Program-made: the position numbers and the translations under genes
Assembly (NCBI GenBank): GCA_022729235.1
Contig: JALDAJ010000001.1
Span: forward strand, 384,001-448,000
Source: Candidatus Nanohalarchaeota archaeon
Lineage (GTDB): Archaea; Nanohalarchaeota; Nanosalinia; Nanosalinales; Nanosalinaceae
DNA length: 64,000 bases
Direction of reading: 5' to 3'
Notes under the pieces: generated by a model
Told to the model about the DNA's origin: nothing
The model's database searches: none
Seen by the model: only the letters and a program-made list of their open reading frames with translations
Shown here: piece by piece, positions 14,076-56,599 of the stretch
Layout of the letters: each line of letters starts with the position of its first letter
How positions within the stretch are numbered: the first letter of the stretch is position 1

Positions 14076-14121
14076 AACTCATTTAAACCTTGGTTTCGAC
14101 TAGAGTTTACACGGCGATAAC

Positions 14122-15360
14122 ATGGATAGAAATGAGGGCGGGGGCGAGGTTTCAGTAGCGGATAGCGAACTGAAATCCAGGTTCTCCAATTACATCAATA
14201 AAGACACAGTTTTCAGGAATAAGGAGGCGCTCACTACTAACTGGAAACCAGAGACTATTCTACACCGAGACCAACAGGTCAATAACCTTGCGTCGATTCT
14301 GGCGCCAGCTCTCAAAAGAGATGATCCTAGTAATGTCTTCATCTACGGTAGCGTAGGGACGGGAAAGACATGTGTAACCAAACACGTTACAGAAGAGCTG
14401 AGGGCTGTAGCCCATGAGGAAGAGGTAGACCTCAATATTGTTTATATAAACTGTAAGATGAAGAAGGTAGCTGATACAGAGTACCGTCTGTTAGCGAAGC
14501 TTACCCGTCAGCTGGGTGAGGAAGTCCCTTCTACCGGCCTCCCTACGGATGAGGTTTACAACCGTTTCTTCGAGGCGCTGGAGAGCCAGGAGGGTGTAGT
14601 CATCATAGCTCTGGATGAGATAGACGCGCTGGTGAAGAAGGTTGGTGACGAGTTCCTGTACAATCTTACTAGAATAAACGATGACCTGAACGACACAAAA
14701 GTTTCTATAATAGGTATCTCCAACGACCTCAACTTTACCGAGTATATGGATTCTCGCGTCAAATCCTCTCTTTCAGAAGAAGAGATAATATTCCCTCCTT
14801 ACAACGCCCTGGAACTCCGGGAGATCCTGGATTCAAGGGCGGGGAAAGGGTTCGCGGACGAAGTTCTTGAGGACGGGGTTATATCCAAATGTTCTGCTTT
14901 AGCCGCCCAGGAACATGGTGATGCCCGGAGGGCGCTAGACCTTATACGTGTCGCGGGCGAGCTCGCGGAACGTGAGGGAGAAGAGCGAGTTGCCCGGTCT
15001 CACGTGGACAGGGCGCAGGATAAGATAGAGAAGGACCGTGTGGTTGAAACAGTCAGGGATCAACCAAAACACTCTAAACTCGTCTTATACACTATACTTG
15101 AGATGGCTGATGAGGATGATGAGGTCGCGACCGGGGATGTCTATTCTGAATACAAGGAGCTCTGCACCCAGGTCGATGTTTCTGAACTCACCCAGAGACG
15201 TGTTTCGGGTCTTATATCTGAGCTGGATATGTTAGGGGTTATCAATGCGAGAGTTATATCAAAAGGACGGTACGGTAGAACAAGGCAGATAAGTGTTGAC
15301 CTGTCACAGGATATTAGGACACAGCTACGTGAAATGGTCGAAGACAAGTTTTACATTTAA
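14122..15360 (+). CDS. cdc6: Orc1/Cdc6 replication initiator
   Basis: Walker A GSVGTGKT, Walker B LDEID, GDARRALD, C-terminal winged helix with SKGRYGRTR. Confidence 0.97.
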   Translation: MDRNEGGGEVSVADSELKSRFSNYINKDTVFRNKEALTTNWKPETILHRDQQVNNLASILAPALKRDDPSNVFIYGSVGTGKTCVTKHVTEELRAVAHEEEVDLNIVYINCKMKKVADTEYRLLAKLTRQLGEEVPSTGLPTDEVYNRFFEALESQEGVVIIALDEIDALVKKVGDEFLYNLTRINDDLNDTKVSIIGISNDLNFTEYMDSRVKSSLSEEEIIFPPYNALELREILDSRAGKGFADEVLEDGVISKCSALAAQEHGDARRALDLIRVAGELAEREGEERVARSHVDRAQDKIEKDRVVETVRDQPKHSKLVLYTILEMADEDDEVATGDVYSEYKELCTQVDVSELTQRRVSGLISELDMLGVINARVISKGRYGRTRQISVDLSQDIRTQLREMVEDKFYI

Positions 15361-16958: not shown

Positions 16959-19900
16959 AGACTGAAGAATACTTCGAGAGTTTGAGGTCGCAAACAGAGA
17001 GAGCTTACGATATCGCGGAGGAGGCGCGCTCCCAGTCGAAAGACCCTGAGGGTGGTGTAGATATCCCGGTCGCGGAGGATTTACCGGAGAAGGCATCATC
17101 CCTGGTAATCGCCGCGAAGTTCCCGGAACTCGAGGATAGTGGTGTCGCGGAACGTATACGTGAGCTGGAGGATGAGTACGGCAAGAACGATGAGCGTGTA
17201 TCTTTCGAAATCGCCCGCGAGATAGCAGAGGGAGAGTTTCATGAGTTTGACGACCTTGAGCGGGCGTGCGAGGCAGGTATCCGTGTTGGCGTCTCGTACA
17301 TGACAGGAGGTATCACTACAGCCCCGCTTGAAGGTATCGGGGATGTCCGGATACGCGAAAACAGTGATGGCACGGATTACCTCGCTATCTACTACTCCGG
17401 CCCTATCAGGTCCGCGGGAGGAACAGCTTCAGCGATGTCCGTCCTCCTGTCGGACTACGTACGCCTCAACGTAGGACTTGAAGAGTTCAAACCGTCGGAG
17501 AAAGTGGTGGAGCGCTATGCCACAGAGGTCGATGACTACTACAACCGTGTCACCTCGAAACAGTACTACCCAGACCGTGAAGAGACCAAGATGATAGCAG
17601 ATAACGTCCCTGTAGAGGTAACGGGCTCACCAACTGAACAGCTCGAGGTGTCGAACTACAAAGACCTGGAACGCGTCAAGACGAACCGGATCAGAGGTGG
17701 TATGTGCCTGGTCTACCTTGACGGTCTACCGTTGAAGGCGCCGAAGATCAAGAAACGTATCGAGAAATGGGGTGAAGCGTTCGGTCTGGAGCACTGGAAG
17801 TGGGTGGAGGAGTATCTCGAACTACAGGAAGAACTACACTCCTCAGGGGATGACGATGAGGAAGAAGAGGAAGAAGGCTTCAGTTACACACCTTCCGACA
17901 AGTTCCTGGATTCGATGACAGCAGGAAGACCTGTATTCGGTCATCCTGGGAAGAAAGGAGGTTTCCGGCTACGGTACGGTCATTCCCGGAATAATGGACT
18001 TGCCGCTACCTCGGTTCACCCTGCGTCGATGGAGATCACGGAACGTTTTATGGCGACAGGTACCCAGCTGAAGACAGAATACCCGATGAAGGGTACGGTC
18101 ACGACACCTTGTGACTCTATACATCCGCCGGTTGCCAGACTGGAGAACGGCGATGTAATCCGGGTGGAGACGCGTGAAAAGGCGCGTGAGATAGAGAATA
18201 AAATTGACGAAATACTTTTTCTCGGGGATATGCTGGTGGCTTACGGTGAGTTCGTGGAGAATGGTAAGCGCCTTCTACCATCTCCATACGTGAGTGAGTG
18301 GTGGGAGAAGGATCTGGAAAAGGCGCTCAAGGAGGGGGAAGTAAAGCTCGGGCGGGACTTCTCCGGGCGCGACCCGACACCGAAGGAGGCGTTCAAGATA
18401 TCGGAGAAACTGGATATACCGCTCCATCCCAGGTGGACTTATCACTGGCGTGAGACATCGGTCGAGCGGTTCGAAGCACTTTACGAGGCGGTCAACTCTG
18501 GAGAACTGGAAGGCGAGAAAGTCAAGAGGTGCCTGGAAGACATACTGCTTGAGCACAGGGTTGAAGACGGAAAAATAGAGCTGGAGAAGCAGGACTTGCT
18601 TGTCCTCCAGAGGCTATTGAAGGATAATGATGAGCCGGAAATCGATGACGCGAGGGAGATACCGGGTTACATAGAAAAAGAGACCAGGGTTGAACTAAGG
18701 GAGCAGGCTCCGCACTACGTCGGTGCAAGGATGGGGCGACCTGAGAAGGCAGAAAAGAGGACTCTAGAAGGGAGACCACAGCTTCTTTTCCCCTGTGGAA
18801 AACAGGAGGGTGGGAGGATGAGAAATCTTTCGGAGTCTTACCGCAAAGGTGAAGTGGAGCAGGAGATAATCCACAACAAGTGTCCTGAATGCTCCAGTTT
18901 CACCTATTTCTCCTACTGCGTGGACTGCGATGTAGCTGCAGATCCGGTCTGGTTCTGCTCTGACTGCGGAAAAGAGTTCGACGAGGAGATGGATAGATGT
19001 GGTTCTTGCGGCAACGAGGACTTCAACCGGCACCAAAGGACAGATATAGAAGTAGAGGAAGTAATCGATGATGCGCTTGACAACCTGGGTTCCCGGCTAC
19101 CAGAGCTCCTGAAGTCGCCGAGAGGTATGAGCGGTAAGCACCGCCACGTCGAACCTGTGGAGAAAGGACTTCTCAGGCAGAAATACGGTCTCTACGTCAA
19201 CAAGGATGGTACAGTGCGGTACGATGCCACAGATATACCTATGACTCATTTCAGACCGCGGGAGATATCTACGTCCGTGGAGAAACTGCGTGAAATCGGT
19301 TACACTGAGGACGTAAACAGCGAACCACTGGAGTCGGAGGACCAGGTTCTGGCGTTGAAGCCGCAGGATATAGTGATACCGGATACCGACAAGTCGCTTC
19401 CTGCCTCAGACTACTTTGTTAACGTCGCAAAGTTCATCGACGACCTACTGGAAGAGTTCTACGGTCTCAAACCTTACTATAACGCTGAAAAAAAGGAGGA
19501 TCTTATAGGCGAGCTCGTAATAGGTCTCGCACCGCACACCTCAGGAGGTACTGTAGGTCGCATAATCGGGTTCACGGATGCGAAAGGTATCTATGCACAT
19601 CCCTACTGGCATGCAGGAAAAAGACGTAACTGTCTACCTGGTGACGCAGAAGTGAAGATGGCTGATGGATCAACACAGAGGCTTAGAGAGCTATACGAGA
19701 GTGCAGGAGAGGAGGAAGAGGTCGACTCAACAGGGACTGTGGAGAAGGAGATGGATGAAGAGGTCCTGACGGTTGATGGGAAGAGTATCAATGCTTCAAA
19801 AGCATCTAAGGTTATCAGGACACCCGCCCAGGACTTCAAGATAGAGTTTGAGACTGAAGGGGGCAGAAAGTTCGAGGTATTCCCAGATCACCGGGTAAAG

Positions 19901-22900
19901 ACGGGTGAGGGTGTGAAGAAAGCCCGTGAGGTTGAGGAAGGAGATAAAGTTTTCACTCCTCTAGAGGTTGATGTCGAAACAGAGGACAAAAAATACCTGG
20001 ATCTAGCAGATATGCTCTTGAACTCTAAGAGGGTGATGGTAAGAGGTGTAGAGGAGAAGGCGGATGCAGCTATCAAAGACCTCGGCGGTCTAAAGGAGGC
20101 ATCTACAGAACTAGGAGTTTCAAAGAAATCTCTGGGTAATTACAAGTATCGAGATAGTATCCCTCTGGACCTGTACCGGGATTTAATGCAGGAGAGTTCT
20201 CAGGATGATAAATTACTGGAAGATACTTCTTTAGCTGCTAAAAGAGACACTGTAGAAATACCTGCTGCGATAGAAGCTGATTCTGACTTCATGAAGCTCC
20301 TGGGATACTACCTGGCAGAAGGCTACACCCGGAAGTCCGAGAAACAGGGAGAAGAATTCTATCAAGTATGCTTCGCGTTTGGAGAACAGGAGCTTGAGGA
20401 TAACATCCGAGAGGTGATAAACAGTGTCTTCGGTATCGAACCGTCCAGACAGGACCATGTCTTGGTTATCAGCTCCAGATTAGTCTATGAGCTCTTCAAG
20501 TCATTAGAAGTCGGAGCAGGTGCGAAAGAAAAGAGGGTCCCGGAATTTGTGAAATCTTTACCAAAAGAAAAAGTCGCTGATATGCTTTCAGCCTACTTTG
20601 CTGGAGACGGGTCAGTTGAAAAGGGAAGGCTCCATGTCCAGGCAACTAGTTCCTCTAGGAAGCTCCTTGATGATATCGACTTCCTGCTGAAGAGGTTCGG
20701 GATTTACACCAGGTACTATCAGAATGATAGAGAGGCAGGGGGAATACTTGTTGATAAGTACGGTGAAGAACACTATGAGGGGAGAACATTTACAACTAAC
20801 AAGCTTCATATCCGGTCTTCTCATGCGGTTACGTTCGGTAAAGAAATAGGCTTTGATCTGGGAAGAAAACAGAAAGCTCTAGAAGCTGATTATAAGAGGG
20901 AACGAAATCCGAGGATTGAGACGGACGGAGAACTTGTGAAAGAAGAGATAAGGTCAAAAGAAACCAGGGAATCTGAAGAACGCTTTATGTATGACATAGA
21001 AGTTGAAGAAACACATAATTTCGTTACAAGAGACAACCTGGTTACTAATAACTGCGACGGTGACGAAGACGCGATATTACTGCTTATGGACGGCCTCCTT
21101 AACTTTTCACGGCAGTTCCTCCCTGATATGACTGGCGCGCGCAGTATAACGAAGGATACACGTATATTTGTCAAGAGAAATGAAGAATTACTGGCTCCTA
21201 CAGCTGAGGAATTGATCGATGAAGTTCTTGAAGATGAAGGGTATGAAACCCGGTCTGACGGATTTGAGGTCTGCAGGAGTTTTGATGACGATATTAAGGC
21301 AGTTTCATTTAGTGAAGATGGAGATGTCGGGTTCACTGATGTATCTGCCCTTATTAGACATGAGAACGATAAGCAGGTTTTCAGGGTGAAGACCTCAAGA
21401 GGCGAGATATCTGTAACCGGAGATCACAGCGTTTTCGTCACAGAAGGAAGGGAGATAGAGGCTAAACCTGTGCGGGAGATAGAAGAAGGTGAATGTATAG
21501 TGGTTCCCTCAAATCCGGATTTAGAAGCTGAAGGACTGCCTGACAAAGTAGATCTATTTGAAGTGATTCCTGACGAAGAATGCTATGTAAAGGTTCCAGA
21601 GGAGGAGCTAGAGGAAATAGGACCTGAGATAAAGCAAGAGGTCACAGAGGATGTAAAGCAGTCCTACAGCGAACATAATATTTACAGGTACAGGACAGGA
21701 AGGAGAGATGCACCTCTCAAGTTCTATAAGGAGGTAGGGGTAGTACCATCCTGCAAGGTGAGACTTCGAGCTGATACTGACCCTGTTAACAGGTTCTTTG
21801 AAGACTGCGATGAACTATACCGCCTTCTAGGTTACCTTCTCTCAGAAGGAGCTCTTGACAGAGGAGATATCTACAACACGGATATAGAATTAATTGAGGA
21901 TGCCAGAGACTGTATCGAGAAGCTTACGGGAGTAAGACCGGATATCAAAGAAGATGTTAGAGAAGAGAGAAAGGTTTGCTATAGTGTCAGGGTTCCGGCT
22001 GCTTTCATGAAGGCTCTGGAAGAGCTTGGTCTTGCCCGGAATAAATTTGATGAGAAAAGAGTTCCCTCGTTTGTATTTGGAGCAGATAAGAGTAAGGTTA
22101 GGAGTTTCATCGAGGCATATAGAAGCGGTGACGGCTCCATATATGAGGAGAAAGGATTTTCCAAGCTCTATACTAAGAGCGGAGAAATGGCTTCACAACT
22201 CTCACTTCTCTTGAGAAAACTTGGGTACAAGTCATCCGCACGCCAGGCAGGAGAGACATGGGAGGTGCTTTATTCGGAGTGGAGGGATAAGGATCCTTAC
22301 TGGCCCCTATGGGATATACTAGATGAAGCTCGTGAAACGCTAAGAGAAGATGGTTTTGACTATGAGGATGTCAAGAGAGAGTTCTCTAACGATAGGACTA
22401 ATGAACGTATGAAAACCGCGTCCAAGGAGAGGGTGGAAGATCTCTATGAAAAAGGAGTTAGTTCTTTAGAGAAGGCGGCTGAAGGCGATATCTCTGTAGA
22501 AAGAGTGGTGGAAATTGAAGAAGCGGATTATGGTGATGACTACGTATATGACCTAGAGGTACCGGAAAAACAGAACTTCCTGTGCGGTCCTCATCCTGTC
22601 TTCGCTCATAACACTATGGATGCGCCATTGATTCTTTCAACAGTTCTCAACCCTGACGAGGTCGATGACGAGGCGTGGGCTATCGAGACGGTCAGTGAGT
22701 ATCCGAGAAGCTTCTACGAAGAGACGCAGGAGTACAAGTATCCGTGGGAGCTTGACACCGATATCGAGATAGGTGAAGATATCGTCCACAGCGATGAGCC
22801 TTTCCGCCACGGCTACACACACGAATCGCAAAATATAGAGAACGGGCCGATGCAGAGCGAGTACGTGACGCTCGACGAGATGAGTGAGAAGACCAGGCAA

Positions 22901-23308
22901 CAGCTCGGGCTTGGTGAGAAGCTGAAGGCGGTGGAGGAGAACAAGGTCGCTGATTTACTGCTACAGAAGCACTTCATCCCTGATATCAAAGGTAATCTCC
23001 GTTCTTTCTCCAGCCAGGAGATGAGGTGTGGTGACTGCAACACCAAGTTCCGTAGAGTGCCGATGACTGCCCAAACAATTGCTCCAACAGGCAAAACCAC
23101 AGCGGAGTGCCCCGAGTGCGGGGGTAAAGTGTTGCTGACGATTTCTGAAGGCACTATCAAGAAGTATATGGAGCCATCGAGAGATATAGTCGAGGAGTTT
23201 GAGGTATCTCCCTATGTCCGACAGCAGATTATAATCCTCAAAGATACACTCCAGAGCCTTTTCGGGAAGGACGACAGGCAGACTGGTATCAAACAGTTCA
23301 CTACATGA
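16955..23308 (+). CDS. polC: DNA polymerase D large subunit DP2 with two inteins (about 1153 aa after splicing)
   Basis: GPIRSAGGT, GGFRLRYG, RMGRPEKA, KRRN/CDGDED, MDAPL, zinc-ribbon Cys clusters. Confidence 0.97.
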   Translation: MKTEEYFESLRSQTERAYDIAEEARSQSKDPEGGVDIPVAEDLPEKASSLVIAAKFPELEDSGVAERIRELEDEYGKNDERVSFEIAREIAEGEFHEFDDLERACEAGIRVGVSYMTGGITTAPLEGIGDVRIRENSDGTDYLAIYYSGPIRSAGGTASAMSVLLSDYVRLNVGLEEFKPSEKVVERYATEVDDYYNRVTSKQYYPDREETKMIADNVPVEVTGSPTEQLEVSNYKDLERVKTNRIRGGMCLVYLDGLPLKAPKIKKRIEKWGEAFGLEHWKWVEEYLELQEELHSSGDDDEEEEEEGFSYTPSDKFLDSMTAGRPVFGHPGKKGGFRLRYGHSRNNGLAATSVHPASMEITERFMATGTQLKTEYPMKGTVTTPCDSIHPPVARLENGDVIRVETREKAREIENKIDEILFLGDMLVAYGEFVENGKRLLPSPYVSEWWEKDLEKALKEGEVKLGRDFSGRDPTPKEAFKISEKLDIPLHPRWTYHWRETSVERFEALYEAVNSGELEGEKVKRCLEDILLEHRVEDGKIELEKQDLLVLQRLLKDNDEPEIDDAREIPGYIEKETRVELREQAPHYVGARMGRPEKAEKRTLEGRPQLLFPCGKQEGGRMRNLSESYRKGEVEQEIIHNKCPECSSFTYFSYCVDCDVAADPVWFCSDCGKEFDEEMDRCGSCGNEDFNRHQRTDIEVEEVIDDALDNLGSRLPELLKSPRGMSGKHRHVEPVEKGLLRQKYGLYVNKDGTVRYDATDIPMTHFRPREISTSVEKLREIGYTEDVNSEPLESEDQVLALKPQDIVIPDTDKSLPASDYFVNVAKFIDDLLEEFYGLKPYYNAEKKEDLIGELVIGLAPHTSGGTVGRIIGFTDAKGIYAHPYWHAGKRRNCLPGDAEVKMADGSTQRLRELYESAGEEEEVDSTGTVEKEMDEEVLTVDGKSINASKASKVIRTPAQDFKIEFETEGGRKFEVFPDHRVKTGEGVKKAREVEEGDKVFTPLEVDVETEDKKYLDLADMLLNSKRVMVRGVEEKADAAIKDLGGLKEASTELGVSKKSLGNYKYRDSIPLDLYRDLMQESSQDDKLLEDTSLAAKRDTVEIPAAIEADSDFMKLLGYYLAEGYTRKSEKQGEEFYQVCFAFGEQELEDNIREVINSVFGIEPSRQDHVLVISSRLVYELFKSLEVGAGAKEKRVPEFVKSLPKEKVADMLSAYFAGDGSVEKGRLHVQATSSSRKLLDDIDFLLKRFGIYTRYYQNDREAGGILVDKYGEEHYEGRTFTTNKLHIRSSHAVTFGKEIGFDLGRKQKALEADYKRERNPRIETDGELVKEEIRSKETRESEERFMYDIEVEETHNFVTRDNLVTNNCDGDEDAILLLMDGLLNFSRQFLPDMTGARSITKDTRIFVKRNEELLAPTAEELIDEVLEDEGYETRSDGFEVCRSFDDDIKAVSFSEDGDVGFTDVSALIRHENDKQVFRVKTSRGEISVTGDHSVFVTEGREIEAKPVREIEEGECIVVPSNPDLEAEGLPDKVDLFEVIPDEECYVKVPEEELEEIGPEIKQEVTEDVKQSYSEHNIYRYRTGRRDAPLKFYKEVGVVPSCKVRLRADTDPVNRFFEDCDELYRLLGYLLSEGALDRGDIYNTDIELIEDARDCIEKLTGVRPDIKEDVREERKVCYSVRVPAAFMKALEELGLARNKFDEKRVPSFVFGADKSKVRSFIEAYRSGDGSIYEEKGFSKLYTKSGEMASQLSLLLRKLGYKSSARQAGETWEVLYSEWRDKDPYWPLWDILDEARETLREDGFDYEDVKREFSNDRTNERMKTASKERVEDLYEKGVSSLEKAAEGDISVERVVEIEEADYGDDYVYDLEVPEKQNFLCGPHPVFAHNTMDAPLILSTVLNPDEVDDEAWAIETVSEYPRSFYEETQEYKYPWELDTDIEIGEDIVHSDEPFRHGYTHESQNIENGPMQSEYVTLDEMSEKTRQQLGLGEKLKAVEENKVADLLLQKHFIPDIKGNLRSFSSQEMRCGDCNTKFRRVPMTAQTIAPTGKTTAECPECGGKVLLTISEGTIKKYMEPSRDIVEEFEVSPYVRQQIIILKDTLQSLFGKDDRQTGIKQFTT
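19631..21052 (+). mobile_element. DP2 intein 1 with LAGLIDADG endonuclease (474 aa)
   Basis: KRRN|CLPGD...LLGYYLAEG...LSAYFAGDG...LVTNN|CDGDED. Confidence 0.93.
21143..22612 (+). mobile_element. DP2 intein 2 with LAGLIDADG endonuclease (490 aa)
   Basis: TGAR|SITKD...VTGDHS...LLGYLLSEG...FIEAYRSGDG...VFAHN|TMDAPL. Confidence 0.93.
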
Positions 23309-27628: not shown

Positions 27629-27667
27629 TAAACTGGTTATATAAGCCGAGGCTACAGATAGAGATTT

Positions 27668-27886
27668 ATGGGCTGGGCGGAAAGACGTGTTGAAGAGTAC
27701 CAGGACGGTGATGACGCAACATGGATGGAGCTCAGAGTTTTAGAGCACGCTAACCCGGTACACCTACCTTTAGCCATTATCGGAACTGTTCTCATCGGAT
27801 ACGGGCTCTGGATGCACGACTTTCTATGGATGGGTGCCGGAGTCGGTCTTAACCTTGCAGGACACCTATACTGCTGGATAAAATAA
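27668..27886 (+). CDS. Small membrane protein
   Basis: 72 aa with two hydrophobic segments (LEHANPV...GHLY); TTATATAA about 25 nt upstream. Confidence 0.7.
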   Translation: MGWAERRVEEYQDGDDATWMELRVLEHANPVHLPLAIIGTVLIGYGLWMHDFLWMGAGVGLNLAGHLYCWIK

Positions 27887-28026
27887 GCCCCGCCCGGGAT
27901 TTGAACCCGGGACCTGTCCCTAGCTCGCTCGAAAATCAGAGATCACGATTTTCTCTGTCCTCGTTCTCTAAAAGAGAACTTGAGGCTTACGAGGGGACCG
28001 CTTTAGCCAGGCTGAGCCAGCGAGGC
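27886..28026 (-). tRNA. tRNA-Thr(CGU) with a 66-nt intron at 37/38 (27922-27987)
   Basis: Reverse complement GCCTCGC-TGGCTCAGCCTGGCTAAAGC-G-GTCCC-CT-CGT-A[intron]A-GGGAC...GGTTCAAATCC-CGG-GCGGGGC-T. CUCG/CGAG central helix of a BHB-like motif; CCA not encoded. Confidence 0.92.
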
Positions 28027-28158
28027 GTCTGCCAGTGAAGTTTCTTTCTGGAAGTTTTTTAACCGCTACGTGACTGGTTCGCGGAACTTTTCAAGGGCTG
28101 CTGTATAGGGAATTGATTTAAACGAGCTCTAGAAATTTCCTTGCACGGTGTATAATTT

Positions 28159-28356
28159 ATGCAGGGCAGAATAGGCGAGGTTGCTGGATATGTCTGGGAT
28201 TTCCTTGAAGACCAGGGGGATTCCTCTGTAACGGCTGTGGCGGATGCTATAGATGTTCCAAGCACGAAGGTGTACATGGCTATCGGGTGGCTTGCCCAGG
28301 AGGACAAGATAGATTTTGAAGAAGCTGGTAGAGGTCAGCGAGTCAGGTTGAAGTAG
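28159..28356 (+). CDS. Small winged-helix protein (DUF2582-like)
   Basis: IGEVAGYVW..L...MAIGWLAQEDKI pattern. Confidence 0.8.
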   Translation: MQGRIGEVAGYVWDFLEDQGDSSVTAVADAIDVPSTKVYMAIGWLAQEDKIDFEEAGRGQRVRLK

Positions 28357-28392
28357 CAGACTGTTTATATTTTTGAGCAACAACTGTTTTTC

Positions 28393-38198: not shown

Positions 38199-38271
38199 AA
38201 AGCAAACTAGTCTGCCACTTTTTTAAATCAATTCCAAAAACTAGTACGAGTAGTTGGAATTGATTTAAAAT

Positions 38272-40284: not shown

Positions 40285-40330
40285 GGTAACCTCTTTGAAT
40301 CAAAAGCTTAAATCCCTTAAATCCAGGGCT

Positions 40331-40528
40331 TTACTTAAGTGCTTCCTTTATATCTTCAGCCCGGACAGTCTTCCTATCATCTTCCCTCGCTATCGCTATT
40401 GCTTCTTCTGCTACGTCTCCCGCGAACATTTCCAGGACCTCTCTAAGTTCCTCTGCACTCCCCTCCGAGACCCTTTTACCGCCTTCGTTCTTGATGAGCT
40501 CTTTCATCTTTGATATAGAGAATTCCAT
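40331..40528 (-). CDS. Archaeal histone (variant)
   Basis: KRVSE...RKTVRAEDI histone fold. Confidence 0.9.
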   Translation of the reverse strand: MEFSISKMKELIKNEGGKRVSEGSAEELREVLEMFAGDVAEEAIAIAREDDRKTVRAEDIKEALK

Positions 40529-40644
40529 TGTTCAACACCTAATACTTGTACCTGAATAATATAAACAAAATGGGGATAAAGGACTGGGATACTTGACTAT
40601 ATAGTTTAAAAAAATTATTAAGGCGCGCTAACCCAACCGGATGT

Positions 40645-40917
40645 ATGGGGGAGGATCTTGAGGAGTTTTTCCTTAATAGAAAGCCAGTAAAGATGATGAT
40701 AGCCCTACATCTCCAGGCTACTGATAACTATGTTTCAGCTATATCGCGTCACGTGGATGCTACGTATTCTCATACAGTGAAGACTCTGAAGAGGATGAAG
40801 GAGTCTGGACTGGTTAGGTTTGAGAAGAAGGGGCGAAAAAAAGAGATTTTCCTGACCGGTAAAGGGGAAGAAGTTGCTGAAAGTCTCCGAAAAACCCTTG
40901 AGACGCTGGAAGAGTAG
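40645..40917 (+). CDS. Winged-helix transcriptional regulator (MarR-like)
   Basis: TYSHTVK.L..M...GLV...KKGRKK.I.LT.KG. Confidence 0.85.
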   Translation: MGEDLEEFFLNRKPVKMMIALHLQATDNYVSAISRHVDATYSHTVKTLKRMKESGLVRFEKKGRKKEIFLTGKGEEVAESLRKTLETLEE

Positions 40918-40938
40918 GTTTTTAATCCGCTGAAATTT

Positions 40939-43298: not shown

Positions 43299-43524
43299 CT
43301 CCTGTCCTCACCGCAGCTGTTTTACCACACTCTGGTTTTGGGTATCGATTTTCTGGGAGGCGTGAAATATCTCACATTACGTGTTGTTTGATTTAGACGA
43401 ACATTCAATGTTTTTTAAAGGCTATTGTTCTGACTCTCAGGTTAATCCATAATTGCCGAGTGTTTGCTTTGGACGAACAACCTGTGTAAAATGGTAAAAA
43501 GAAGCGCCAGCAAGCAGTTCCTGT

Positions 43525-43761
43525 ATGAGGATAACAAGGATTCAGGACGACGGCGAGCGGTTCATTATTTACGGCGACGGCAGACTCCTGGACAAGCTGA
43601 GCGAGGTCTTCGGCCAGATGGCTTTAGGGGTCTCGGTCACGGAGTCCGAGAGAGGCGTGGCTAATATCCTCTACACGGAGAACAACCGGGATATCGTACT
43701 GCGTGTTTTGAGGGAGCGCACTGAGGGCGAGATGGGTGTTGCTAATCGAGATTCGTCTTGA
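43525..43761 (+). CDS. Small hypothetical protein
   Basis: 78-aa ORF with plausible codon usage. Confidence 0.5.
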   Translation: MRITRIQDDGERFIIYGDGRLLDKLSEVFGQMALGVSVTESERGVANILYTENNRDIVLRVLRERTEGEMGVANRDSS

Positions 43762-44389
43762 CTCGGTCGTATGAGTGTTCAAACTGATTAAACACTCGCT
43801 GCTCTGTGAGGTCGGAATCGAGACAGTTTCTGAAAACTCTCTGGCACAAACCTTCTTTATACAGATATAGGTAAAATGCGTTTCTCAGTATATCCTTCTT
43901 GCTTCGGCAAGGGTAAACGAACCAGATAGGGTATATAATAAAGAAGGTATATTTTCTCGACCCAGGGACGAGTTTCTCATTCACTCGGTTTCATTATACC
44001 TTCTTTGTTCTGGAGTTTTGGCAAAAAATCAAGTTATTTGGAAAAATTCTGGCTGTTTGAGATCTGAAACTCTTCTGGTTCTGGGAGGTTTGTGTTACTT
44101 TCCATGTCCAAGGTATCGGATTTTATTGTGAGATCGAGGTACTTCGCCTACCTTTATTGGAGGGTGCTTTTTGCTGTTGTTGAGAGTTCGTGAGTGTTCG
44201 TTTTTTATGAACTCTCGTTAGTATCTATTTTACTGGCTGATGGTTACAAAGGATTTAAAATGTGTTTGACTGTTCGTTATTTCCGAACTAATTGGTGTTC
44301 GATGTTTCTGAACAATCTTTGATGCATGAGAGTGTTAGAGGGGGGGGCAAGGAGGCTAGAATTAAAAACAGTGCGTTGCGAACTGCTTA

Positions 44390-46533: not shown

Positions 46534-47640
46534 ATGAAAATAAACAACTATATCACGCCCTTAGAAAACAAGCACGTCTTTGCTGTAGCAGCACTGCTTC
46601 TAGTCGGTGCTGCCGTCGGTATCGGTACAACCCTAGACCAAGACGGTGGTGAAAGCGACGATTTACAGGTAGTAGCGACTTTCTACCCGCTGTATGACAT
46701 AGGGCAGAATATCGGGGGTGATGAAGCGTCTTTCTCGACCCTCGTATCGCCAGGAACGGATCCTCACAGCTTTGATCCTTCTCCAAGAGACATCCAGGGA
46801 CTCAAGGATGCAGATATTTTCGTGGCGACAGGAGCCGAGTTCGAGGAGTGGGAGAAAGACATGGTTGAAGAAGTTAGAGACGACGCTGTCATAGTCGACC
46901 CTTCAGAGAGAATCGACCTGGTTCTGGCGGACGAGACACCCGACCCCCATCATGATCACGGACATGACCACGACGGCGATGACCAGGAACATCATGAGGA
47001 CGAGCATCACGATGAAGAAGAACATCATGATGAGCATCACGATGACGAGCACCACGGTGAGGAAGATCATCACGATGAACATCATGAGGACGAGCACCAT
47101 GGTGAACATGACCACAGCCACGGGCGTTATGACCCTCACTACTGGCTTTCACCACAGAACGCTATAGTTATCGCGGAAGAGATCGGTAAAGCGCTACAGG
47201 AAGTAGATGAAGAAAACGCTGAGCACTACAGCGAGAACCTTGAAAACTACGTCGGCGAACTTGAAGCGCTCGACCAGGAGTACGAGGAACGGCTTTCCGA
47301 CTGTGAACAGGATACTATCCTGATAACGCACCCTGCGTTCGCCTACCTCGGACAGGACTACGGGTTTAAGCAGGTACCTGTCTCGGGAATCGGTCACCTG
47401 ACGGAGCCGTCGCCACACGAGCTCCAGGACCTGGTCCGCGAGGCTGAAGAGCACGGACTGGAGTATATCTTCTACGACCCAGTTACTGAGGCGGATGCCG
47501 CGGAGACTATAGCCAGCGAGATCGACGCAGAAACACTTCCTCTACACAGCGTTGAGGCGGTAGAGAACCCGGAACAGGAAACCTACCTGTCGCTGATGGA
47601 GAAAAATCTGGAGAACCTTGAAACAGCGCTAGAGTGCTGA
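46534..47640 (+). CDS. znuA: Metal ABC transporter substrate-binding protein with His/acidic loop (ZnuA/AdcA-like)
   Basis: VVATFYPL, DPHSFDP, YDPHYWLSP, HPAFAYL, long His-rich insert. Confidence 0.92.
   Translation: MKINNYITPLENKHVFAVAALLLVGAAVGIGTTLDQDGGESDDLQVVATFYPLYDIGQNIGGDEASFSTLVSPGTDPHSFDPSPRDIQGLKDADIFVATGAEFEEWEKDMVEEVRDDAVIVDPSERIDLVLADETPDPHHDHGHDHDGDDQEHHEDEHHDEEEHHDEHHDDEHHGEEDHHDEHHEDEHHGEHDHSHGRYDPHYWLSPQNAIVIAEEIGKALQEVDEENAEHYSENLENYVGELEALDQEYEERLSDCEQDTILITHPAFAYLGQDYGFKQVPVSGIGHLTEPSPHELQDLVREAEEHGLEYIFYDPVTEADAAETIASEIDAETLPLHSVEAVENPEQETYLSLMEKNLENLETALEC
46950..47120 (+). repeat. Degenerate coding repeat for the His/Asp/Glu-rich loop
   Basis: Repeated GAACATCATGAGGACGAGCA / CATCACGATGA units encoding EHH(E/D)DE. 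Confidence 0.8.
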
Positions 47641-49679: not shown

Positions 49680-49770
49680 TGCTGACTTACTTGGATTTCA
49701 ATCCCTTTATTTAAGTATCTAACCGCATCTATAAGCAGGTTTGATATACTATCTTTGTTAAGACTTCTCT

Positions 49771-50244
49771 ATGGCGGAAAACAAGCACCCGTTTGTAGAT
49801 GAGGCGGCGAGAAAGTCATCGACCATCGTGACCAAAAACTCTCTTGCAATCCCGGAGGATCGTGAAAAGTACAAGTTAAGTGACAGGGCGTGGAACTGGG
49901 AGAAGATAGTCGACCTGTTCTTCCCACAAGAGCAGTCGCCGAGAAGGAACAAGTACGCAAAGATATTCTTGAGAGAGCTGAAGCAGGAAGGTGAAATAGA
50001 CTCCGAGAAGCTGAACTCTTTCGATGAGTGGGGTCATGAGAAGGGTAAGAGCAACCTGAAGAACCATATATTGCCCAAGCTAAGGAGGCTAGGTATCATA
50101 CAGTATGAGTACCTTGAGTACCGCGACCGGAGTGAGGGCAAGCAGGGTCGCCAGAAGGTTATCAAGCCCGCAAGGTCATTTACCTCGATGCTGGACGCTA
50201 TAGCAAACGGCTGGGCTGCTTTCGAGTCCGCGGCATATGAATAA
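49771..50244 (+). CDS. Hypothetical winged-helix-like protein
   Basis: ILPKLRRLGII followed by a wing-like segment (GKQGRQKVIKP) and a C-terminal helix. Confidence 0.6.
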   Translation: MAENKHPFVDEAARKSSTIVTKNSLAIPEDREKYKLSDRAWNWEKIVDLFFPQEQSPRRNKYAKIFLRELKQEGEIDSEKLNSFDEWGHEKGKSNLKNHILPKLRRLGIIQYEYLEYRDRSEGKQGRQKVIKPARSFTSMLDAIANGWAAFESAAYE

Positions 50245-50254
50245 CTCGGTATGA

Positions 50255-50746
50255 TTTTCCGGAATCCCTGGGAAAGCAGAACCTCTAGAGGGAGAGGTTT
50301 CTCTTCGCGGAGCCGCGATTTTACAGCGCTGTGGCTGTAACTATATTCGCTTCTGCGTGAAGTCCGGTCTCCATTCGAGTGTTGTCGTATTCGCGTGCTT
50401 CAAGTTCGGCTTCGAAGTCTCGTGTGTTGGCGTCGATTGTGGGCACCTTTTCTGGCTGTGAGTGTTGGATGTCATGATAGGTTCCGGGGACGGGCACCAC
50501 CTAGTAAGCAGTACCCGTCTTTAGAAAGTTCCACGGTGTAGAGGCGGCAGAAACTTTCCCTGTTTTTTGTTGTTTTTCGCGGTCGGCGCAACCAGCTCCT
50601 TGCGGAGCCAAGGCGTCATCCCACTTTACTCAGCCAGAATAAACTTAATATGGGAAGCCTTGGCCTTGGTAGCGTTATAATTAGGTCTCACTAGATCCAC
50701 TGACACGTTTCCAGTAAGCCATTGATTAGATTGAGCCAAGACCATT
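50255..50746 (-). ncRNA. Candidate large structured RNA of unknown class containing a 59-codon acidic reading frame
   Basis: TTTTAAA box at 50772-50778; about 10 helices whose G-U pairs are valid only on the minus strand; GCAA tetraloop; long-range complementarities. Confidence 0.6.
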
Positions 50747-50786
50747 TCTATGGAAACCTTGGACTTCGAGGTTTAAAAGGGTACTG

Positions 50787-51542
50787 CTACCTGTTCACGT
50801 GCGGTCTGTACACATCGTCCGCTAGACGGCTATGAACCTCTTCAAGCAACTGTTTAAGGTTTCTGGCGTCGTACTGGTTGTAGTGTACAAGTTTTTCTAG
50901 CGCGTTTTCATCCCCCTGTTTTTCGTAGCGCTTCCAGAGTCTTATCGCTTCTCTACCGTCAACGTCCTCCAGCTCTCGGTTGATACCGAGTCGTGTCTCG
51001 ACCTCTTTCAGACCGCCAGAAATACCGAGGCGCCGGCAGAGGTACATCAAATCGATGTGCGGTGTTTCGATGTCAAGACCGAAGTTCTGCTCCAGGAACG
51101 GCTGGTCGAAGCGTTTCCCGTTGAAGGAGACTAGAACGCTGGAGTTGAAGATTTCCTCCTCTAGTCTTTCCCGGGTCAGGTTCTTTCCCTGTACCAGGGT
51201 CGTGTCGTCCCCGCCACGATAGAAACTAACTGTTGTCACCTTGTTTTTCTTTGCATCAAGTCCTGTGGTCTCGATGTCGAAGAAGCAGGCGTTCTCCTGG
51301 AAGTTACTGTAGAGTCGCCAGAGCTCTTTTGAAGGCAGTTTATCGCCGAAGAAGACGGTGTTGCCGACCTCCAGGTTTTTCTGTGCGCGTTCGAGAAAGC
51401 CGCAGACTTTTTCATGCCGGGTTCCGTTGATAACTCCGCATCCATGGAAGTCGTCCCAGTGCGTTATTCCCTGTTTCCAGAGCTTTTTTTCTGTTTTCTT
51501 TCCTATACCTGGTGCCAGAATAAAGCTGTTTTCAAGACGCAT
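50787..51542 (-). CDS. RNase H-like 3'-5' exonuclease (RNase_H_2/YprB-like)
   Basis: PGIGKKTE HhH, FFDIETTG, FNGKRFD, HIDL, YNQYDA. Confidence 0.88.
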   Translation of the reverse strand: MRLENSFILAPGIGKKTEKKLWKQGITHWDDFHGCGVINGTRHEKVCGFLERAQKNLEVGNTVFFGDKLPSKELWRLYSNFQENACFFDIETTGLDAKKNKVTTVSFYRGGDDTTLVQGKNLTRERLEEEIFNSSVLVSFNGKRFDQPFLEQNFGLDIETPHIDLMYLCRRLGISGGLKEVETRLGINRELEDVDGREAIRLWKRYEKQGDENALEKLVHYNQYDARNLKQLLEEVHSRLADDVYRPHVNR

Positions 51543-52879: not shown

Positions 52880-55800
52880 ATGAGCCTCGAAGTCCAGGTG
52901 GTTGACGCGGACTACATCATCGAGAACGGAGAAGTAGTTGTACGCTGTTTTGGCAAGACCGCGGACGGCGAAAATGTTCTCTTCCTCGACAGAAACTTCC
53001 AGCCGTACCTGTATGCAGTCCCTGCTGGGGATGTCGACATCGAAGATTTGAAGCAGGAGGTCGTAGAAACCGAGTTCGAGAACGAGGATGAGGAGCTGCC
53101 AGTCACGGAGGTAGATAGTCTGGAGATGCTGGACGGAGACGAGGAGATAGAAGTTCTCAAGATTTACTCAAGCATCCCGGCGAACATCCCGAAGCTGAAG
53201 GATGAGCTATGGGATTTACCAGAAGTTAAGGAGTGCCGAGAGTTTGACATCCCGTTCTACAAGCGCTACCTGATGGACCAAGGTATAAGACCGGGCGAAT
53301 GGATCTGTGTCCGGGGCGAGGAATCGGATTCCGGTGAGTTCGACCGTGTTATAGACGCGGACGGTATCGAAACAGGGGTCGAAAGGGACGGAGAGCCGGA
53401 CTGGTACACGCTCGCGTTTGACCTGGAGGTATACCAGGATGAGATAATAATGGCATCTTTCTACGCGGAAGACTTCGAAAAAGTACTGACAACGGAGGAA
53501 ATCGACAAAGAGTTTGTCGAGACCGTGGATGACGAGGAAGCCCTACTGGAGAGGTTCATAAAGATACTTGAAGAAAAAGACGTTGACATACTGACGGGCT
53601 ACAACACTGACGAGTTCGACTTCGATGTTCTAAGGAATCGGGCAGAGCATCACAATATCACACTGTCGCTCGGCAGAGACGGCGAACGCATGAAGTTCAA
53701 CAGGAGAGGTCGGTTCAAGGGTGCCCGACTAAAAGGTCGGATGCACCTTGACCTCTATCCATTCATATCACACGTGCTCGCACCGGGACTGGAGTCCGAG
53801 ACGCTCGACCTTGACTCGGTCGCTGAAGAAGTACTGGGGATGAAGAAGGACGACCTGTCGTGGGAGGAGATGAAGACTTCCTGGAGAGAAAAAGAGGATC
53901 TCGATGTCTTCGCGGATTACGCACTGAGGGACTCGGAACTCGCGTTCAAACTGGGAAGAGAGCTACTCCCACAGATAATAGAGCTCTCCCGAATCACAGG
54001 ACTGATACCGTTCGATGCCTGCCGTTTAACGTACGGTCAGCTGACGGAGAACTTCCTGATAAGGGAGGCGTACGAGAGAGAAATGCTCGCAGCCAACAGG
54101 CCTTCCCGCGATGAACGGGGCAAAAGACGGAGGCAGAACGCCTACGAGGGCGGATTCGTCTACACGCCCGAGGCCGGTCTACACGAGGATATCGGACTGT
54201 TCGACTTCAAGTCGCTGTACCCGACGGTCATGGTTTCCCACAACATCTCGCCTGACACATTGAACCTTGACGACTGCGGGGACAGGTTCACGCTTGAAGA
54301 GTTCGACTACAACTTCTGCCAGGACGAACAGGGCTTCTTCCCCGAACTGGTGGAGGGGCTGGTCGAGGACAGGTCACGTATAAAGGAAAAGATGAAGGAA
54401 TTAGAGGCAGGAAGCCAGGAGTACAAGTCGTTGGACAACAGGCAGAAGGCTGAAAAGATACTTGCAAACTCGTTCTACGGCTACCTTGGCTATAGCGGTG
54501 CGAGATGGTACTCCCGGGAATGCGCCGAGGCAACGACCTATTTAGGACGGGAGTACATCCAGGATACTATCGAGATCGCGGAGGATATGGGATTCGAGGT
54601 GGTCTACGGAGATAGTTTAGACTATTCTAGACAGATTGTCGTAAAAAATCCTCGAGGAGATATTGAGTTCATTGAAATAGGTGAATTTGTAGAGAAAACT
54701 GATAAACCGGAAACATATGAAACCATAGCTTGGGATGAAGAACGGGGTAAAGCCGTCTTTAAACCTGTGAAGAGAGCAATAGTGCATGACTATGAAGAGA
54801 GAATGCTTAGATTTGATACCAATCGAGGCAGAACCAAGGTAACGCCACAGCATTCAGTCTACAAATATGAAGATGGTGAAATTAAGCTGGCAGACGCAGA
54901 ACAATTAGAACAGGGAGATTGTCTCGTATCTTTATCAGCTCCACCTAAGACTAATGCAAGATACACTGCAGGCGATTTAATTGATCTCACAGATTTTGAC
55001 TATGGAGATTCCGAACTTAGAGCTTACTTAGATACTAGGGAGTTTCCAGCTGAGATAGGAGAATGCCCTTACTGCCAAGAAGAATACTACCTGTCTTCTC
55101 ATGTCTATAGTCAACATGCTGAGAGGAGGGTTGAATTAGAAGAAGCTACATCAGAATATTCATATATTGGATGTAAGAATGCAAAAGCAGGGAAGATACC
55201 GAGGTTTCTGGAGTTGACTCCCGAGTTTGCTTGGGTTCTAGGCTTCTACTGTGGCGACGGTTCGGCGTCTATTGGAGATAAACAAATGATTTCGTTTGGA
55301 GGCCAAGATAAAGAAAATATTCAGAGAGTCAAGGAGTTCTTCGACGGCATTTTGGAAGATGAATTAGTTATCATAGAGGATGTTGACCCTCGAACAGGCA
55401 ATAAGATGTACTACTACAGAGTTCAAAGGAAGTCCTTAGTAAAATTCTTTGTTAACGGTTTAGAGACAGGTATAGGGTGCTCTGGTAAGAAGGTTCCAAA
55501 TGTCATATTGAACGGTGATGAGGAACTAAAGAAGTCCTTTATAGAAGGTTACTTTGAGGCTGATGGGTCTAAAGAGAGGGTGCACGACTCCCGATATAAT
55601 TCTGAAAGTATGCGTTTCTCCAGCAAAAGTCCTTATCTGGCGAACCAAATCCAATATATTTTGAAGCAGCTGAAATTAGGAGAGAACAGATATGGAAGGA
55701 AGATAAATGATGTTTCGTATAAGTATCGTGATGATAAACCTGAGATTAAGTCAATAAGAAACACTGCGCCTAGGAAACCTGGGTTTGCAGAGCTTAACTT

Positions 55801-56599
55801 TACCCCTGCAAGAATTAGTCAGATAAAGGAAGTAGACCCCACTAAGGACAGAGTATATGATTTAGAGGTTAAGGGTGAACATAACTTTGTGGATGCAGAA
55901 GGACTTTTGCTAGTTCACAACACAGACTCCGTGTTCCTGAAGTCTGAAGGACTCAGGGATAAGATCGACAGCTTCCTGAAAGAGGTTAACGATGAACTGC
56001 CGGAGTTTATGCAGTTAGAGCTTGAAGGTGTCTTCAAACACGGGTTCTTCACCTCGACAGAGAGCGGTGAAGGTGCGAAGAAGAAGTACGCGCTTCTCGC
56101 GGAGGACGGAAGCATGAAGATAACAGGGTTCGAGCAGGTCCGGCGGGACTGGAGCCCTGTTGCAAAGCAGACGCAGAAAAAAGTGCTCCGGATGGTCCTA
56201 GAGGACGAGGTCAAGAAAGCTGTTGAAGAGGTCAAATCGACCGTGGAAGATTTACGCGACGGTAAAATCCCTGTGGAGGATTTGAGGATTTACACCACAT
56301 TAACGAAGAAGCCGGAGAACTACGAGTCCACCGCACCGCATGTCGAGGCGGCGAAAAAGGCTATCGAACGCGGGGAAGACATCAGCCCAGGTACGACCAT
56401 CGACTACGTGGTCACGAGAGGCTCCGGAACTATCTCATCCCGCGCGGAACTGGCGAAGTACGCGGAGGACTACGACCCGGATTACTATATCGAGAACCAG
56501 ATAGTGCCCGCGTCTCTACGCGCGCTGAAAGTGTTTGGCTACACCGCGGACCAGCTCAAGGGGGAAGGTAAGCAGAGCGGGCTGGATAGGTTCGGATGA
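52880..56599 (+). CDS. polB: Family B DNA polymerase with an intein (about 803 aa after splicing)
   Basis: FDLE, GYN...FD, DFKSLYPT, KILANSFYGY, YGD/TDS, KKKYA, VRRDW, C-terminal PIP box QSGLDRF. Confidence 0.97.
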   Translation: MSLEVQVVDADYIIENGEVVVRCFGKTADGENVLFLDRNFQPYLYAVPAGDVDIEDLKQEVVETEFENEDEELPVTEVDSLEMLDGDEEIEVLKIYSSIPANIPKLKDELWDLPEVKECREFDIPFYKRYLMDQGIRPGEWICVRGEESDSGEFDRVIDADGIETGVERDGEPDWYTLAFDLEVYQDEIIMASFYAEDFEKVLTTEEIDKEFVETVDDEEALLERFIKILEEKDVDILTGYNTDEFDFDVLRNRAEHHNITLSLGRDGERMKFNRRGRFKGARLKGRMHLDLYPFISHVLAPGLESETLDLDSVAEEVLGMKKDDLSWEEMKTSWREKEDLDVFADYALRDSELAFKLGRELLPQIIELSRITGLIPFDACRLTYGQLTENFLIREAYEREMLAANRPSRDERGKRRRQNAYEGGFVYTPEAGLHEDIGLFDFKSLYPTVMVSHNISPDTLNLDDCGDRFTLEEFDYNFCQDEQGFFPELVEGLVEDRSRIKEKMKELEAGSQEYKSLDNRQKAEKILANSFYGYLGYSGARWYSRECAEATTYLGREYIQDTIEIAEDMGFEVVYGDSLDYSRQIVVKNPRGDIEFIEIGEFVEKTDKPETYETIAWDEERGKAVFKPVKRAIVHDYEERMLRFDTNRGRTKVTPQHSVYKYEDGEIKLADAEQLEQGDCLVSLSAPPKTNARYTAGDLIDLTDFDYGDSELRAYLDTREFPAEIGECPYCQEEYYLSSHVYSQHAERRVELEEATSEYSYIGCKNAKAGKIPRFLELTPEFAWVLGFYCGDGSASIGDKQMISFGGQDKENIQRVKEFFDGILEDELVIIEDVDPRTGNKMYYYRVQRKSLVKFFVNGLETGIGCSGKKVPNVILNGDEELKKSFIEGYFEADGSKERVHDSRYNSESMRFSSKSPYLANQIQYILKQLKLGENRYGRKINDVSYKYRDDKPEIKSIRNTAPRKPGFAELNFTPARISQIKEVDPTKDRVYDLEVKGEHNFVDAEGLLLVHNTDSVFLKSEGLRDKIDSFLKEVNDELPEFMQLELEGVFKHGFFTSTESGEGAKKKYALLAEDGSMKITGFEQVRRDWSPVAKQTQKKVLRMVLEDEVKKAVEEVKSTVEDLRDGKIPVEDLRIYTTLTKKPENYESTAPHVEAAKKAIERGEDISPGTTIDYVVTRGSGTISSRAELAKYAEDYDPDYYIENQIVPASLRALKVFGYTADQLKGEGKQSGLDRFG
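54614..55921 (+). mobile_element. PolB intein (YGD/TDS site) with LAGLIDADG endonuclease (436 aa)
   Basis: YGD|SLDYS...VTPQHS...LGFYCGDG...FIEGYFEADG...LLVHN|TDS; AT-richer than the exteins. Confidence 0.95.

Follow-up and report, generated by a model that had tools for sequence, protein, structure and literature searches.

The window analysed here, a stretch of 64,000 nucleotides (nt) from a Candidatus Nanohalarchaeota archaeon (contig JALDAJ010000001.1), carries on its minus strand, at 50321..50500, an acidic reading frame next to a structured RNA. A sequence-only reading of the window had taken this frame for a tag-like template locked inside the RNA. The comparison with homologous loci indicates, with a probability of about 0.8, that it belongs to a conventionally translated small-protein gene standing behind a conserved structured leader, and that the 59-codon frame is an over-extended reading of this gene. 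Judged by their substitution pattern, the last 38 codons (50437..50321) are a conserved coding sequence under purifying selection in Nanohaloarchaea. Our verdict is that this is an unannotated gene for a small acidic protein, found here only in Nanohaloarchaea.

The frame (50500..50321) is housed in a 542-nt gap between an RNase H-like gene and a convergent open reading frame (ORF) of 157 amino acids (aa). For the comparison, 36 homologues of the RNase H-like protein were aligned and 80 loci were retrieved from genome contigs. When the gap was compared with the 80 loci using blastn, 10 matched at E ≤ 1e-4, and the remaining matches had E ≥ 0.08; the best relative, L001, was 70% identical across 447 nt. 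The alignment set consists of the window and 10 loci (L001-L009 and L014), giving 11 DNA sequences. The features of the small gene are as follows.

50321..50446, minus strand: putative small protein gene, with a conserved core of 38 codons at 50437..50321, recognised by its comparative coding signature.

50444..50449, minus strand: Shine-Dalgarno-like (SD-like) motif AAGGTG; the corresponding GGTG stands 6-11 nt 5' of the start in 10/11 sequences, and L005 has GGTA.

50447..50500, minus strand: 5' part of the 59-codon frame, 18 codons beyond GTG 50446, read as non-coding; it overlaps helix 7 and the linker described below.

The frame exists as it had been described, with 59 codons, a GTG start and a TAG directly before GTG GTG, and A (33%) and C (31%) predominate in its body, with T at 14%. 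Its length is unremarkable, as the window has 230 ORFs of at least 59 aa. Its acidic composition is gene-like: the share of aspartate and glutamate (D+E) is 18.6% over the whole frame, compared with 18.0% for the real ORFs of at least 200 aa in the window and 7.0% for the 140 ORFs of 59-100 aa. Within the frame the acidic residues are unevenly placed, with D+E of 23.7% in the last 38 residues versus 9.5% in the first 21.

All 11 aligned sequences contain an ORF of 37-38 codons with a common end point, and the stop codon occupies one shared position, where it is TAA in six, TAG in four and TGA in one. The peptide frame is the sole frame open in 11/11 sequences; the five others have stops in most, the best of them being the in-phase antisense frame, which is open in 6/11. 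The variable columns at codon positions 1, 2 and 3 number 25, 16 and 36 of 38, respectively. The proportion of nonsynonymous differences (pN) is lower than that of synonymous differences (pS) in 55/55 pairs, including the six pairs among the four sequences with ATC, ATA or ATT at the start (ATH-type); the ratio of the corresponding rates (dN/dS) is finite for 31 pairs, with a median of 0.21. The coding block has two indels, of 3 nt each. The codon-level conservation that the sequence-only reading had proposed as a check was thus found, in the variability of third positions and in pN < pS.

The 11 peptides share the pattern M-[ND]-A-N-x-R-x-F-E-x-E-L ... A-T-A-L-stop, in which A3, N4, R6, F8, E9, E11, L12, A14 and the final ATAL are invariant, and the isoelectric point (pI) is about 4.3. 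A profile of these peptides was searched against 1.84 billion protein representatives with a cut-off of E ≤ 1e-3. The search gave 38 proteins at this cut-off, 16 of them at E ≤ 1e-10, and the match reached the C-terminus every time. Stand-alone proteins of 35-48 aa account for 23 of the 38 representatives, and the other 15 are longer, with 62-107 aa. We read the N-terminal extensions of these 15 as read-through of the upstream hairpin, several of them carrying a motif apparently derived from it. The final residue is Leu in 34/38 representatives; together with ATAL-stop in 11/11 loci, this bears out the conserved C-terminus that had been anticipated.

In the predicted structure (AlphaFold), the peptide forms one helix over residues 3-37, with a mean predicted local distance difference test score (pLDDT) of 71.5 and a predicted TM-score (pTM) of 0.31. 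With a cut-off of E ≤ 10, Pfam and NCBIfam gave nothing for the peptide except a match of one homologue to DUF4250 at E = 0.11, and a sequence search of the PDB gave no match. Among 13,440 stop-to-stop segments of the loci, the peptide profile had 11 hits, and none in the 69 other, mostly haloarchaeal, loci. The gene is single-copy and occupies one fixed chromosomal position in all 11 genomes, and the phage and plasmid collections contained no match to the unit.

The start of the gene is conserved as well. At the family start position, ATG is present in 7/11 loci, with ATC in the window and L001, ATA in L003 and ATT in L014; the same position holds Met in 34 of the 38 representatives and Ile in four. 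In L004, L005 and L006, a stop codon lies 0-3 codons 5' of the ATG, and therefore the ATG must be the start there. The earlier statement that there is no upstream AUG holds for the window and fails for the family. The expectation of a conserved C-terminus without a conserved start is contradicted by the counts of ATG and Met and by the GGTG upstream; a conserved ordinary start, which the sequence-only reading had itself named as evidence against its proposal, is what the homologues contain. The GGTG motif agrees with the SD sequence GGAGGUGA, which the accessible text of PMC6237735 quotes for a Pyrococcus mRNA. SD-like motifs precede 18/49 ORFs of the window versus a background of 17.5%. Ensemble folding of the predicted transcript of 499 nt puts the lowest mean pairing probability, 0.36, at the SD-like motif and the start.

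The SD-like motif supplies an in-frame GTG in the window, L001 and L003, three codons 5' of the family start, and two short Ile-type representatives start three residues upstream (VPKI.. and MSTI..). Therefore, the product in the window would be either 41 aa, if initiation occurs at GTG 50446, or 38 aa, if it occurs at the Ile codon ATC 50437. A two-protein tree does not resolve the four ATH-type genomes as one clade. The in-frame stretch 5' of the start varies in the homologues from 0 to 69 codons of unrelated sequence, and the reading frame through helix 7 is not preserved among them. By this comparison, the first 21 codons of the 59-codon frame, both GUGs included, are RNA hairpin and linker and are non-coding.

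The sequence-only reading was right that the frame adjoins a genuinely structured RNA. The features of this RNA and its putative promoter are as follows.

50477..50748, minus strand: structured RNA domain of about 272 nt with several helices, detected by blastn in 10 loci, by nhmmer and by covariation in RNAalifold.

50772..50778, minus strand: TATA-like box TTTTAAA, a putative promoter; a TTWWAA-type block is present in 11/11 sequences.

50661..50744, minus strand: helix 1 (50744-50736 with 50669-50661), which closes a first sub-domain with an inner hairpin; 9 pairs, 93.9% paired.

50579..50624, minus strand: second sub-domain (helices 4-6), with helix 4 round the invariant GGGAUGA and a covarying hairpin.

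50489..50519, minus strand: helix 7, a hairpin with the two GUG codons, which ends the domain; 95.7% of cells paired.

In the window, the nhmmer hits cover 50748-50578 and 50522-50477, and the TATA-like box lies about 27 nt before the first conserved nucleotides of the RNA. From the putative transcription start to the SD-like motif, RNAalifold gives 50 pairs in seven helices, of which 17 pairs have compensatory changes. The paired cells amount to 93.8%, compared with 32-48% when the partners are slid by 1-3 columns, and 0/500 shuffles attain the observed pairing, the covariation score or the count of doubly changed pairs. Helix 4 joins 50624-50621 with 50582-50579, and 4/8 pairs of helix 6 are doubly changed. 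Between the covarying helices stand invariant unpaired blocks, GGGAUGA and GACCG among them. The minus strand of the gap folds with z = −3.87, with 0/100 shuffles as good, and the plus strand with z = −1.37; these scores and the many G-U pairs indicate that the RNA is made from the same strand as the ORF. Only candidates of 4-5 base pairs (bp) were found for further covarying helices, too weak with 11 sequences.

In helix 7, 8/15 pairs of the alignment are changed on both sides, and the fold in the window has −21.4 kcal/mol. The GUG codons are indeed buried in this hairpin, as had been described: both stand in the 3' strand of 50519..50489, which forms 14 pairs including G-U. The 3' strand (50489-50503) also holds in most of the 11 sequences a second AGGUG, which is SD-like and paired largely via G-U. 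This second motif may be a standby or decoy site for the ribosome, or merely a structural constraint.

The domain corresponds to no catalogued RNA that was searched. Rfam 15 matched nothing in the window at the gathering score, nor in 49700-51300 with the threshold relaxed to E ≤ 10; on the 13 best loci, Rfam at the gathering score together with ARAGORN gave no family, transfer RNA (tRNA) or transfer-messenger RNA (tmRNA). The nhmmer profile of the RNA found only its 11 source sequences, with no second copy in the window and none in the 69 other loci. Several candidate identities were tried and rejected. The sequence CACTGGAAAC resembles the core of the origin recognition box (ORB) of a replication origin; it is present just once, is part of a covarying helix and lies 35 kb from the orc1/cdc6 gene. 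For the template repeat of a diversity-generating retroelement, the only repeat match in the 64-kb window is 28 nt at 79%, with no reverse-transcriptase family among the scanned ORFs. For RNase P RNA and signal recognition particle RNA, no convincing likeness to known motifs was seen by eye. RNase P proteins are present in nanohaloarchaea according to the accessible text of PMC4919917, and therefore a normal RNase P RNA would be expected elsewhere in the genome.

The claim that the frame is locked inside this RNA did not survive the comparison. Three long-range complementarities between the flanks had been proposed as competitors of the local hairpins. They exist as sequence; they are not conserved, and ensemble folding of the predicted transcript (499 nt) gives the three helices pair probabilities of 0.000-0.002. 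The best duplex between the flanks scores z = −2.1 in the window, and no more than 2/11 sequences fall below −2. The segments have better local mates, GGGAAAG pairing with AACUUUCU and UAGAGGU lying in a hairpin of the 3' untranslated region (3'-UTR) at 50299-50280. The stop codon does lie in a hairpin, as had been noted, with 7 bp formed by 50340-50334 and 50327-50321, although this hairpin is specific to the window and built on the window's own synonymous codons. Because the locking helices are improbable and not conserved and the stop hairpin is specific to the window, the ORF is placed downstream of the domain, past a linker, and not inside it.

Between the domain and the ORF, and beyond the ORF, the following features were found.

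50450..50488, minus strand: A/C-rich linker of variable length from helix 7 to the ribosome-binding site; its indels in the alignment are not multiples of 3.

50280..50299, minus strand: 3'-UTR hairpin AACCUCU...AGAGGUU, which contains UAGAGGU, seen in the local fold between the convergent genes.

In the 11 sequences, the start codon is separated from the 3' side of helix 7 by 53-96 nt, with an A+C content of 0.51-0.74. None of the 11 linkers has a T run of at least 5, with T4 in 2/11, and none has a TATA-like block as conserved as that at 50778-50772. As there is neither an oligo-T terminator nor a second TATA-like box between the parts, we favour a single transcript of about 0.5 kb that runs from the domain through the A/C-rich linker into the ORF. 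The 3'-UTRs likewise have no T run of at least 5, with T4 in 1/11. Across the loci, 11-87 nt lie between the ends of the small ORF and of the convergent 157-aa gene, and their transcripts may overlap at the 3' ends. In the gap 50250-50320 and its counterparts in the 10 loci, a palindromic hairpin is usual by eye, and its sequence is not conserved.

We propose that the ribosome would enter at the accessible ribosome-binding site and translate the ORF in the conventional manner. In the group to which the window belongs, ATG would have changed to ATC, ATA or ATT, and translation would start at GTG 50446 or at the Ile codon. The folded domain would act in cis as a leader, either for stability or for control by a protein or a ligand, or it would have a separate role as an RNA, in which case the unit would count as a dual-function RNA. 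The peptide probably binds a partner through the invariant face of its N-terminal helix and the carboxylate of its C-terminal T-A-L. A more specific form of this proposal is put forward tentatively: a dual-function RNA of Nanohaloarchaeota that combines a sensor or riboregulator of about 270 nt, maybe partnered with the basic winged-helix-like protein encoded next to it, with a 38-aa peptide that has a non-AUG start in one group. The non-AUG start in this case would be AUC, AUA or AUU behind the SD-like motif, or GUG within it.

Several points weigh against the reading as a conventionally translated gene behind a leader. The comparison is based on only 11 DNA sequences, and both ends of the transcript as well as translation itself are inferred. 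ATG is missing from the family start in the window, none of the 17 open codons upstream in L014 is ATG, GTG or TTG, and aIF1 of archaea discriminates against non-canonical starts, as stated in the accessible text of PMC6237735. A word-based protein search with the 59-aa translation gave no candidates. UUUU follows helix 7 in 2/11 sequences. Sequestration of the SD-like motif by the leader is not conserved, as z < −2 is reached in 2/11 sequences and the partner sites differ, and regulation by the leader is therefore hypothetical. The accessible part of a metatranscriptome study (PMC7002113) contains a conserved 266-nt intergenic small RNA (sRNA) of nanohaloarchaea, STRG.4577.1. The structured domain could be this RNA, since the lengths are close (266 vs about 272 nt); we treat this as a lead. 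Apart from this sRNA, no earlier description of the unit was found in the accessible text of the literature.

The same lead bears on a division of the unit into two genes, that is, an sRNA of about 270 nt that is non-coding and ends after helix 7, and a separate short mRNA driven by a weak promoter in the linker. The agreement in length with STRG.4577.1 would suit this arrangement, as would a T/A-containing stretch (CCTTAT or CTTTTAC) that follows helix 7 in several sequences and the T4 in two of them. We nevertheless consider it rather doubtful, because no linker has a T run of at least 5 or a TATA-like block as conserved as the one at 50778-50772, the ORF follows the domain in 11/11 loci, and 15/38 metagenomic gene calls run through the hairpin into the ORF, so that the parts are adjacent there too. 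A cis-regulator that behaves like a riboswitch or binds a protein, perhaps the 157-aa protein, and switches the small ORF by alternative pairing is unlikely. The invariant unpaired blocks between covarying helices are what such a regulator might show, the basic neighbour (pI 9.17) is adjacent in 11/11 loci, and the segment CCAAGGCC can pair with either of two copies of GCCUUGG, the alternative helix being possible in 88.9% of cells. However, the alternative helix shows no covariation above the control, as 83/500 shuffles reach it, and the search for an expression platform (a terminator or a helix sequestering the SD-like motif) found none in the 11 sequences. In addition, the fold match of the neighbour is to DNA-binding PadR/LmrR-type regulators, at no better than E = 4e-3, and the 38-aa product offers no hint of a ligand.

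The two systems to which the sequence-only reading had likened the locus fare less well. A tmRNA-like rescue RNA, in which a tag template with a degron end is entered without initiation, deserves practically no credence. The invariant, small and hydrophobic ATAL end, the missing ATG in the window and the adjacent structured RNA are in its favour. Against these stand the empty searches of Rfam at E ≤ 10 and of ARAGORN, the SD-like motif and ATG in 7/11 loci with Met in 34/38 representatives, and a conserved N-terminal half (ANxRxFExEL), which is unexpected for a tag. The sequence-only reading had itself reported no tRNA-like T-arm, CCA end or smpB, and this was confirmed: ARAGORN reported no tRNA or tmRNA gene for the window or the 13 loci, and a Pfam scan of 47 window ORFs gave no SmpB family. 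No tmRNA is known from archaea. With no tRNA-like domain and an ordinary start, the ribosome-rescue role was dropped. A type I toxin-antitoxin-like system, in which a gated mRNA for a toxic peptide is restrained by its structure or by an antisense RNA, is very improbable. A small ORF does stand behind a long structured 5' region, and the 11-87 nt gap to the convergent neighbour would allow the 3' ends to overlap, which is the sole candidate overlap for an antisense RNA. The peptide is, however, acidic (D+E 23.7%, pI about 4.3), has no membrane-spanning hydrophobic segment and is predicted as one soluble helix, which does not suit a hydrophobic toxin. Moreover, the gene is a single copy at a fixed chromosomal position in 11 genomes, unlike the patchy distribution of toxin-antitoxin systems, it has no phage or plasmid match, and the SD-like motif is not consistently sequestered. 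There is likewise scarcely any room for an untranslated chance ORF or decaying remnant. The 230 ORFs of comparable or greater length, the start position without ATG in the window and the empty first protein search would fit such an origin; the coding signature, including pN < pS among the ATH-type pairs, and the 38 representative clusters do not. Taken as a whole, the sequence-only reading was right about an acidic coding frame, a conserved C-terminus and a structured RNA, and wrong about the extent of the frame, the missing start, the locking helices and ribosome rescue.

The genes on either side of the unit are the following.

50787..51542, minus strand: RNase H-like gene (Pfam RNase_H_2, E = 2.4e-42).

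49771..50244, plus strand: the convergent 157-aa ORF, encoding a basic protein with a winged-helix-like core, which adjoins the unit in 11/11 loci.

In the 10 related loci, the element sits between the RNase H-like gene and the homologue of the 157-aa gene. Two of these loci, L004 and L007, have extra genes inserted beside the RNase H-like gene, and the element still adjoins the 157-aa gene. One locus, L009 (contig JBLGBK010000002.1), is labelled as a metagenome-assembled genome of Colwellia polaris, yet it bears the nanohaloarchaeal locus, with the RNA and the peptide as well as the RNase H-like and 157-aa genes; this contig is probably mis-binned. Homologues of the 157-aa protein number 59, at 65-100% identity, and the named ones come almost entirely from Nanohaloarchaea. 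The pI of the protein is the second highest of the 49 window ORFs, in an acidic proteome. The AlphaFold (AF2) model has a pLDDT of 67.7 and a winged-helix core, and the PadR/LmrR-type regulators, the best PDB match in Foldseek, have a query-normalised TM-score of about 0.39; no PDB match was found at E ≤ 1e-3. An Atlas search with the homologue P0190 gave nothing but archaeal clusters and a lead to PF27297 AF_0843 at 0.91. The protein has no Pfam or NCBIfam family, and its sole sequence match in the PDB, eL20 at E = 0.13, was treated as noise. From its adjacency alone, the 157-aa protein could regulate or bind the unit.

Other observations were made in the window. An AT-richer gap of about 790 nt at 13332-14121 (the GC content is 0.41 for 13001-14000) lies directly 5' of an Orc1/Cdc6 gene at 14122-15360, which is followed by the genes for the small and large subunits of DNA polymerase D (PolD); this gap is likely a replication origin. 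The UDP-glucose dehydrogenase (24-2558) contains one intein with LAGLIDADG, the large subunit of PolD (16955-23308) has a match to an intein-splicing domain in two stretches, with LAGLIDADG, and the family B polymerase ORF of 1239 aa (52880-56599) looks intein-bearing from its length. A ZnuA-like ORF for a periplasmic metal-binding protein (46534-47640) has a His/Asp/Glu-rich tract at 46952-47114, which comprises 9 overlapping imperfect repeats with a spacing of 12-18 nt. At 38221-38270, between an AAA_14/DUF4143 gene and radA, there is a palindrome of 25+25 nt without spacer, 88% complementary and with TTTTAAA at both ends, which may represent back-to-back promoters or a protein-binding site. 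The gaps 43299-44389, 27629-28392 and 40285-40938 have no ORF of at least 110 aa and no Rfam match.

The Nanohaloarchaea, which are symbionts of minute size, have genomes of about 1 Mb, and the contig of the window measures 1,027,595 bp; in genomes so small, the strong conservation of the unit likely matters. The structured RNA, the 38-aa peptide and the basic winged-helix-like protein, whose identity within the lineage is 65-90%, are seemingly specific to Nanohaloarchaea and belong to no database family, and they form a compact module that can be tested. The locus also illustrates how small genes are mis-called, as 15/38 metagenomic calls extend the peptide through the RNA hairpin. The occurrence of ATG, ATC, ATA and ATT at one start position provides a natural series for studying the choice of start codons in archaea.

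Among known systems, tmRNA (SsrA) is alike in having a short frame beside a structured RNA and a small hydrophobic end; the present unit differs in having no tRNA-like domain, an SD-like motif with ATG, a conserved N-terminal half and an archaeal host. In the mRNAs of type I toxins such as hok and tisB, a long folded 5' region likewise precedes a small ORF; here, in contrast, the peptide is acidic and soluble, and the gene is a fixed single chromosomal copy. Riboswitch leaders are alike in the covarying multi-helix domain 5' of an ORF, and the 50 pairs, 17 of them compensatory, with the invariant unpaired blocks give the domain the aptamer-like character expected of this class. They differ in that no expression platform and no Rfam family were found here, and the downstream product is a 38-aa peptide instead of an enzyme or a transporter. 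The sRNA STRG.4577.1, as far as the accessible text of PMC7002113 describes it, comes from the same lineage, is intergenic, conserved and of similar length, has a predicted stem-loop, and is treated there as non-coding.

The small-protein-coding sRNAs (spRNAs) of Methanosarcina mazei and the bacterial SR1/SR1P and AzuCR are, in the accessible text of their descriptions, transcripts of a few hundred nt that combine a folded RNA with an ORF of fewer than 50 codons. Their peptides are amphipathic or helical and are usually missed by gene callers, as is the case here. Further dual-function sRNAs are SgrS/SgrT and RNAIII/hld. The translated small ORF inside the RNA that defines an spRNA is suggested here by the comparative coding signature. 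The present unit differs from these RNAs in its structured part, which has about 270 nt and at least seven helices, far above typical seed regions, and it has no relation to them in sequence or family; it is known only from Nanohaloarchaea, and its activity at the RNA level is putative. By this comparison, the unit appears closest to the sRNAs that encode small proteins and the dual-function RNAs, or else to mRNAs whose structured leader is long, and it falls in no described family.

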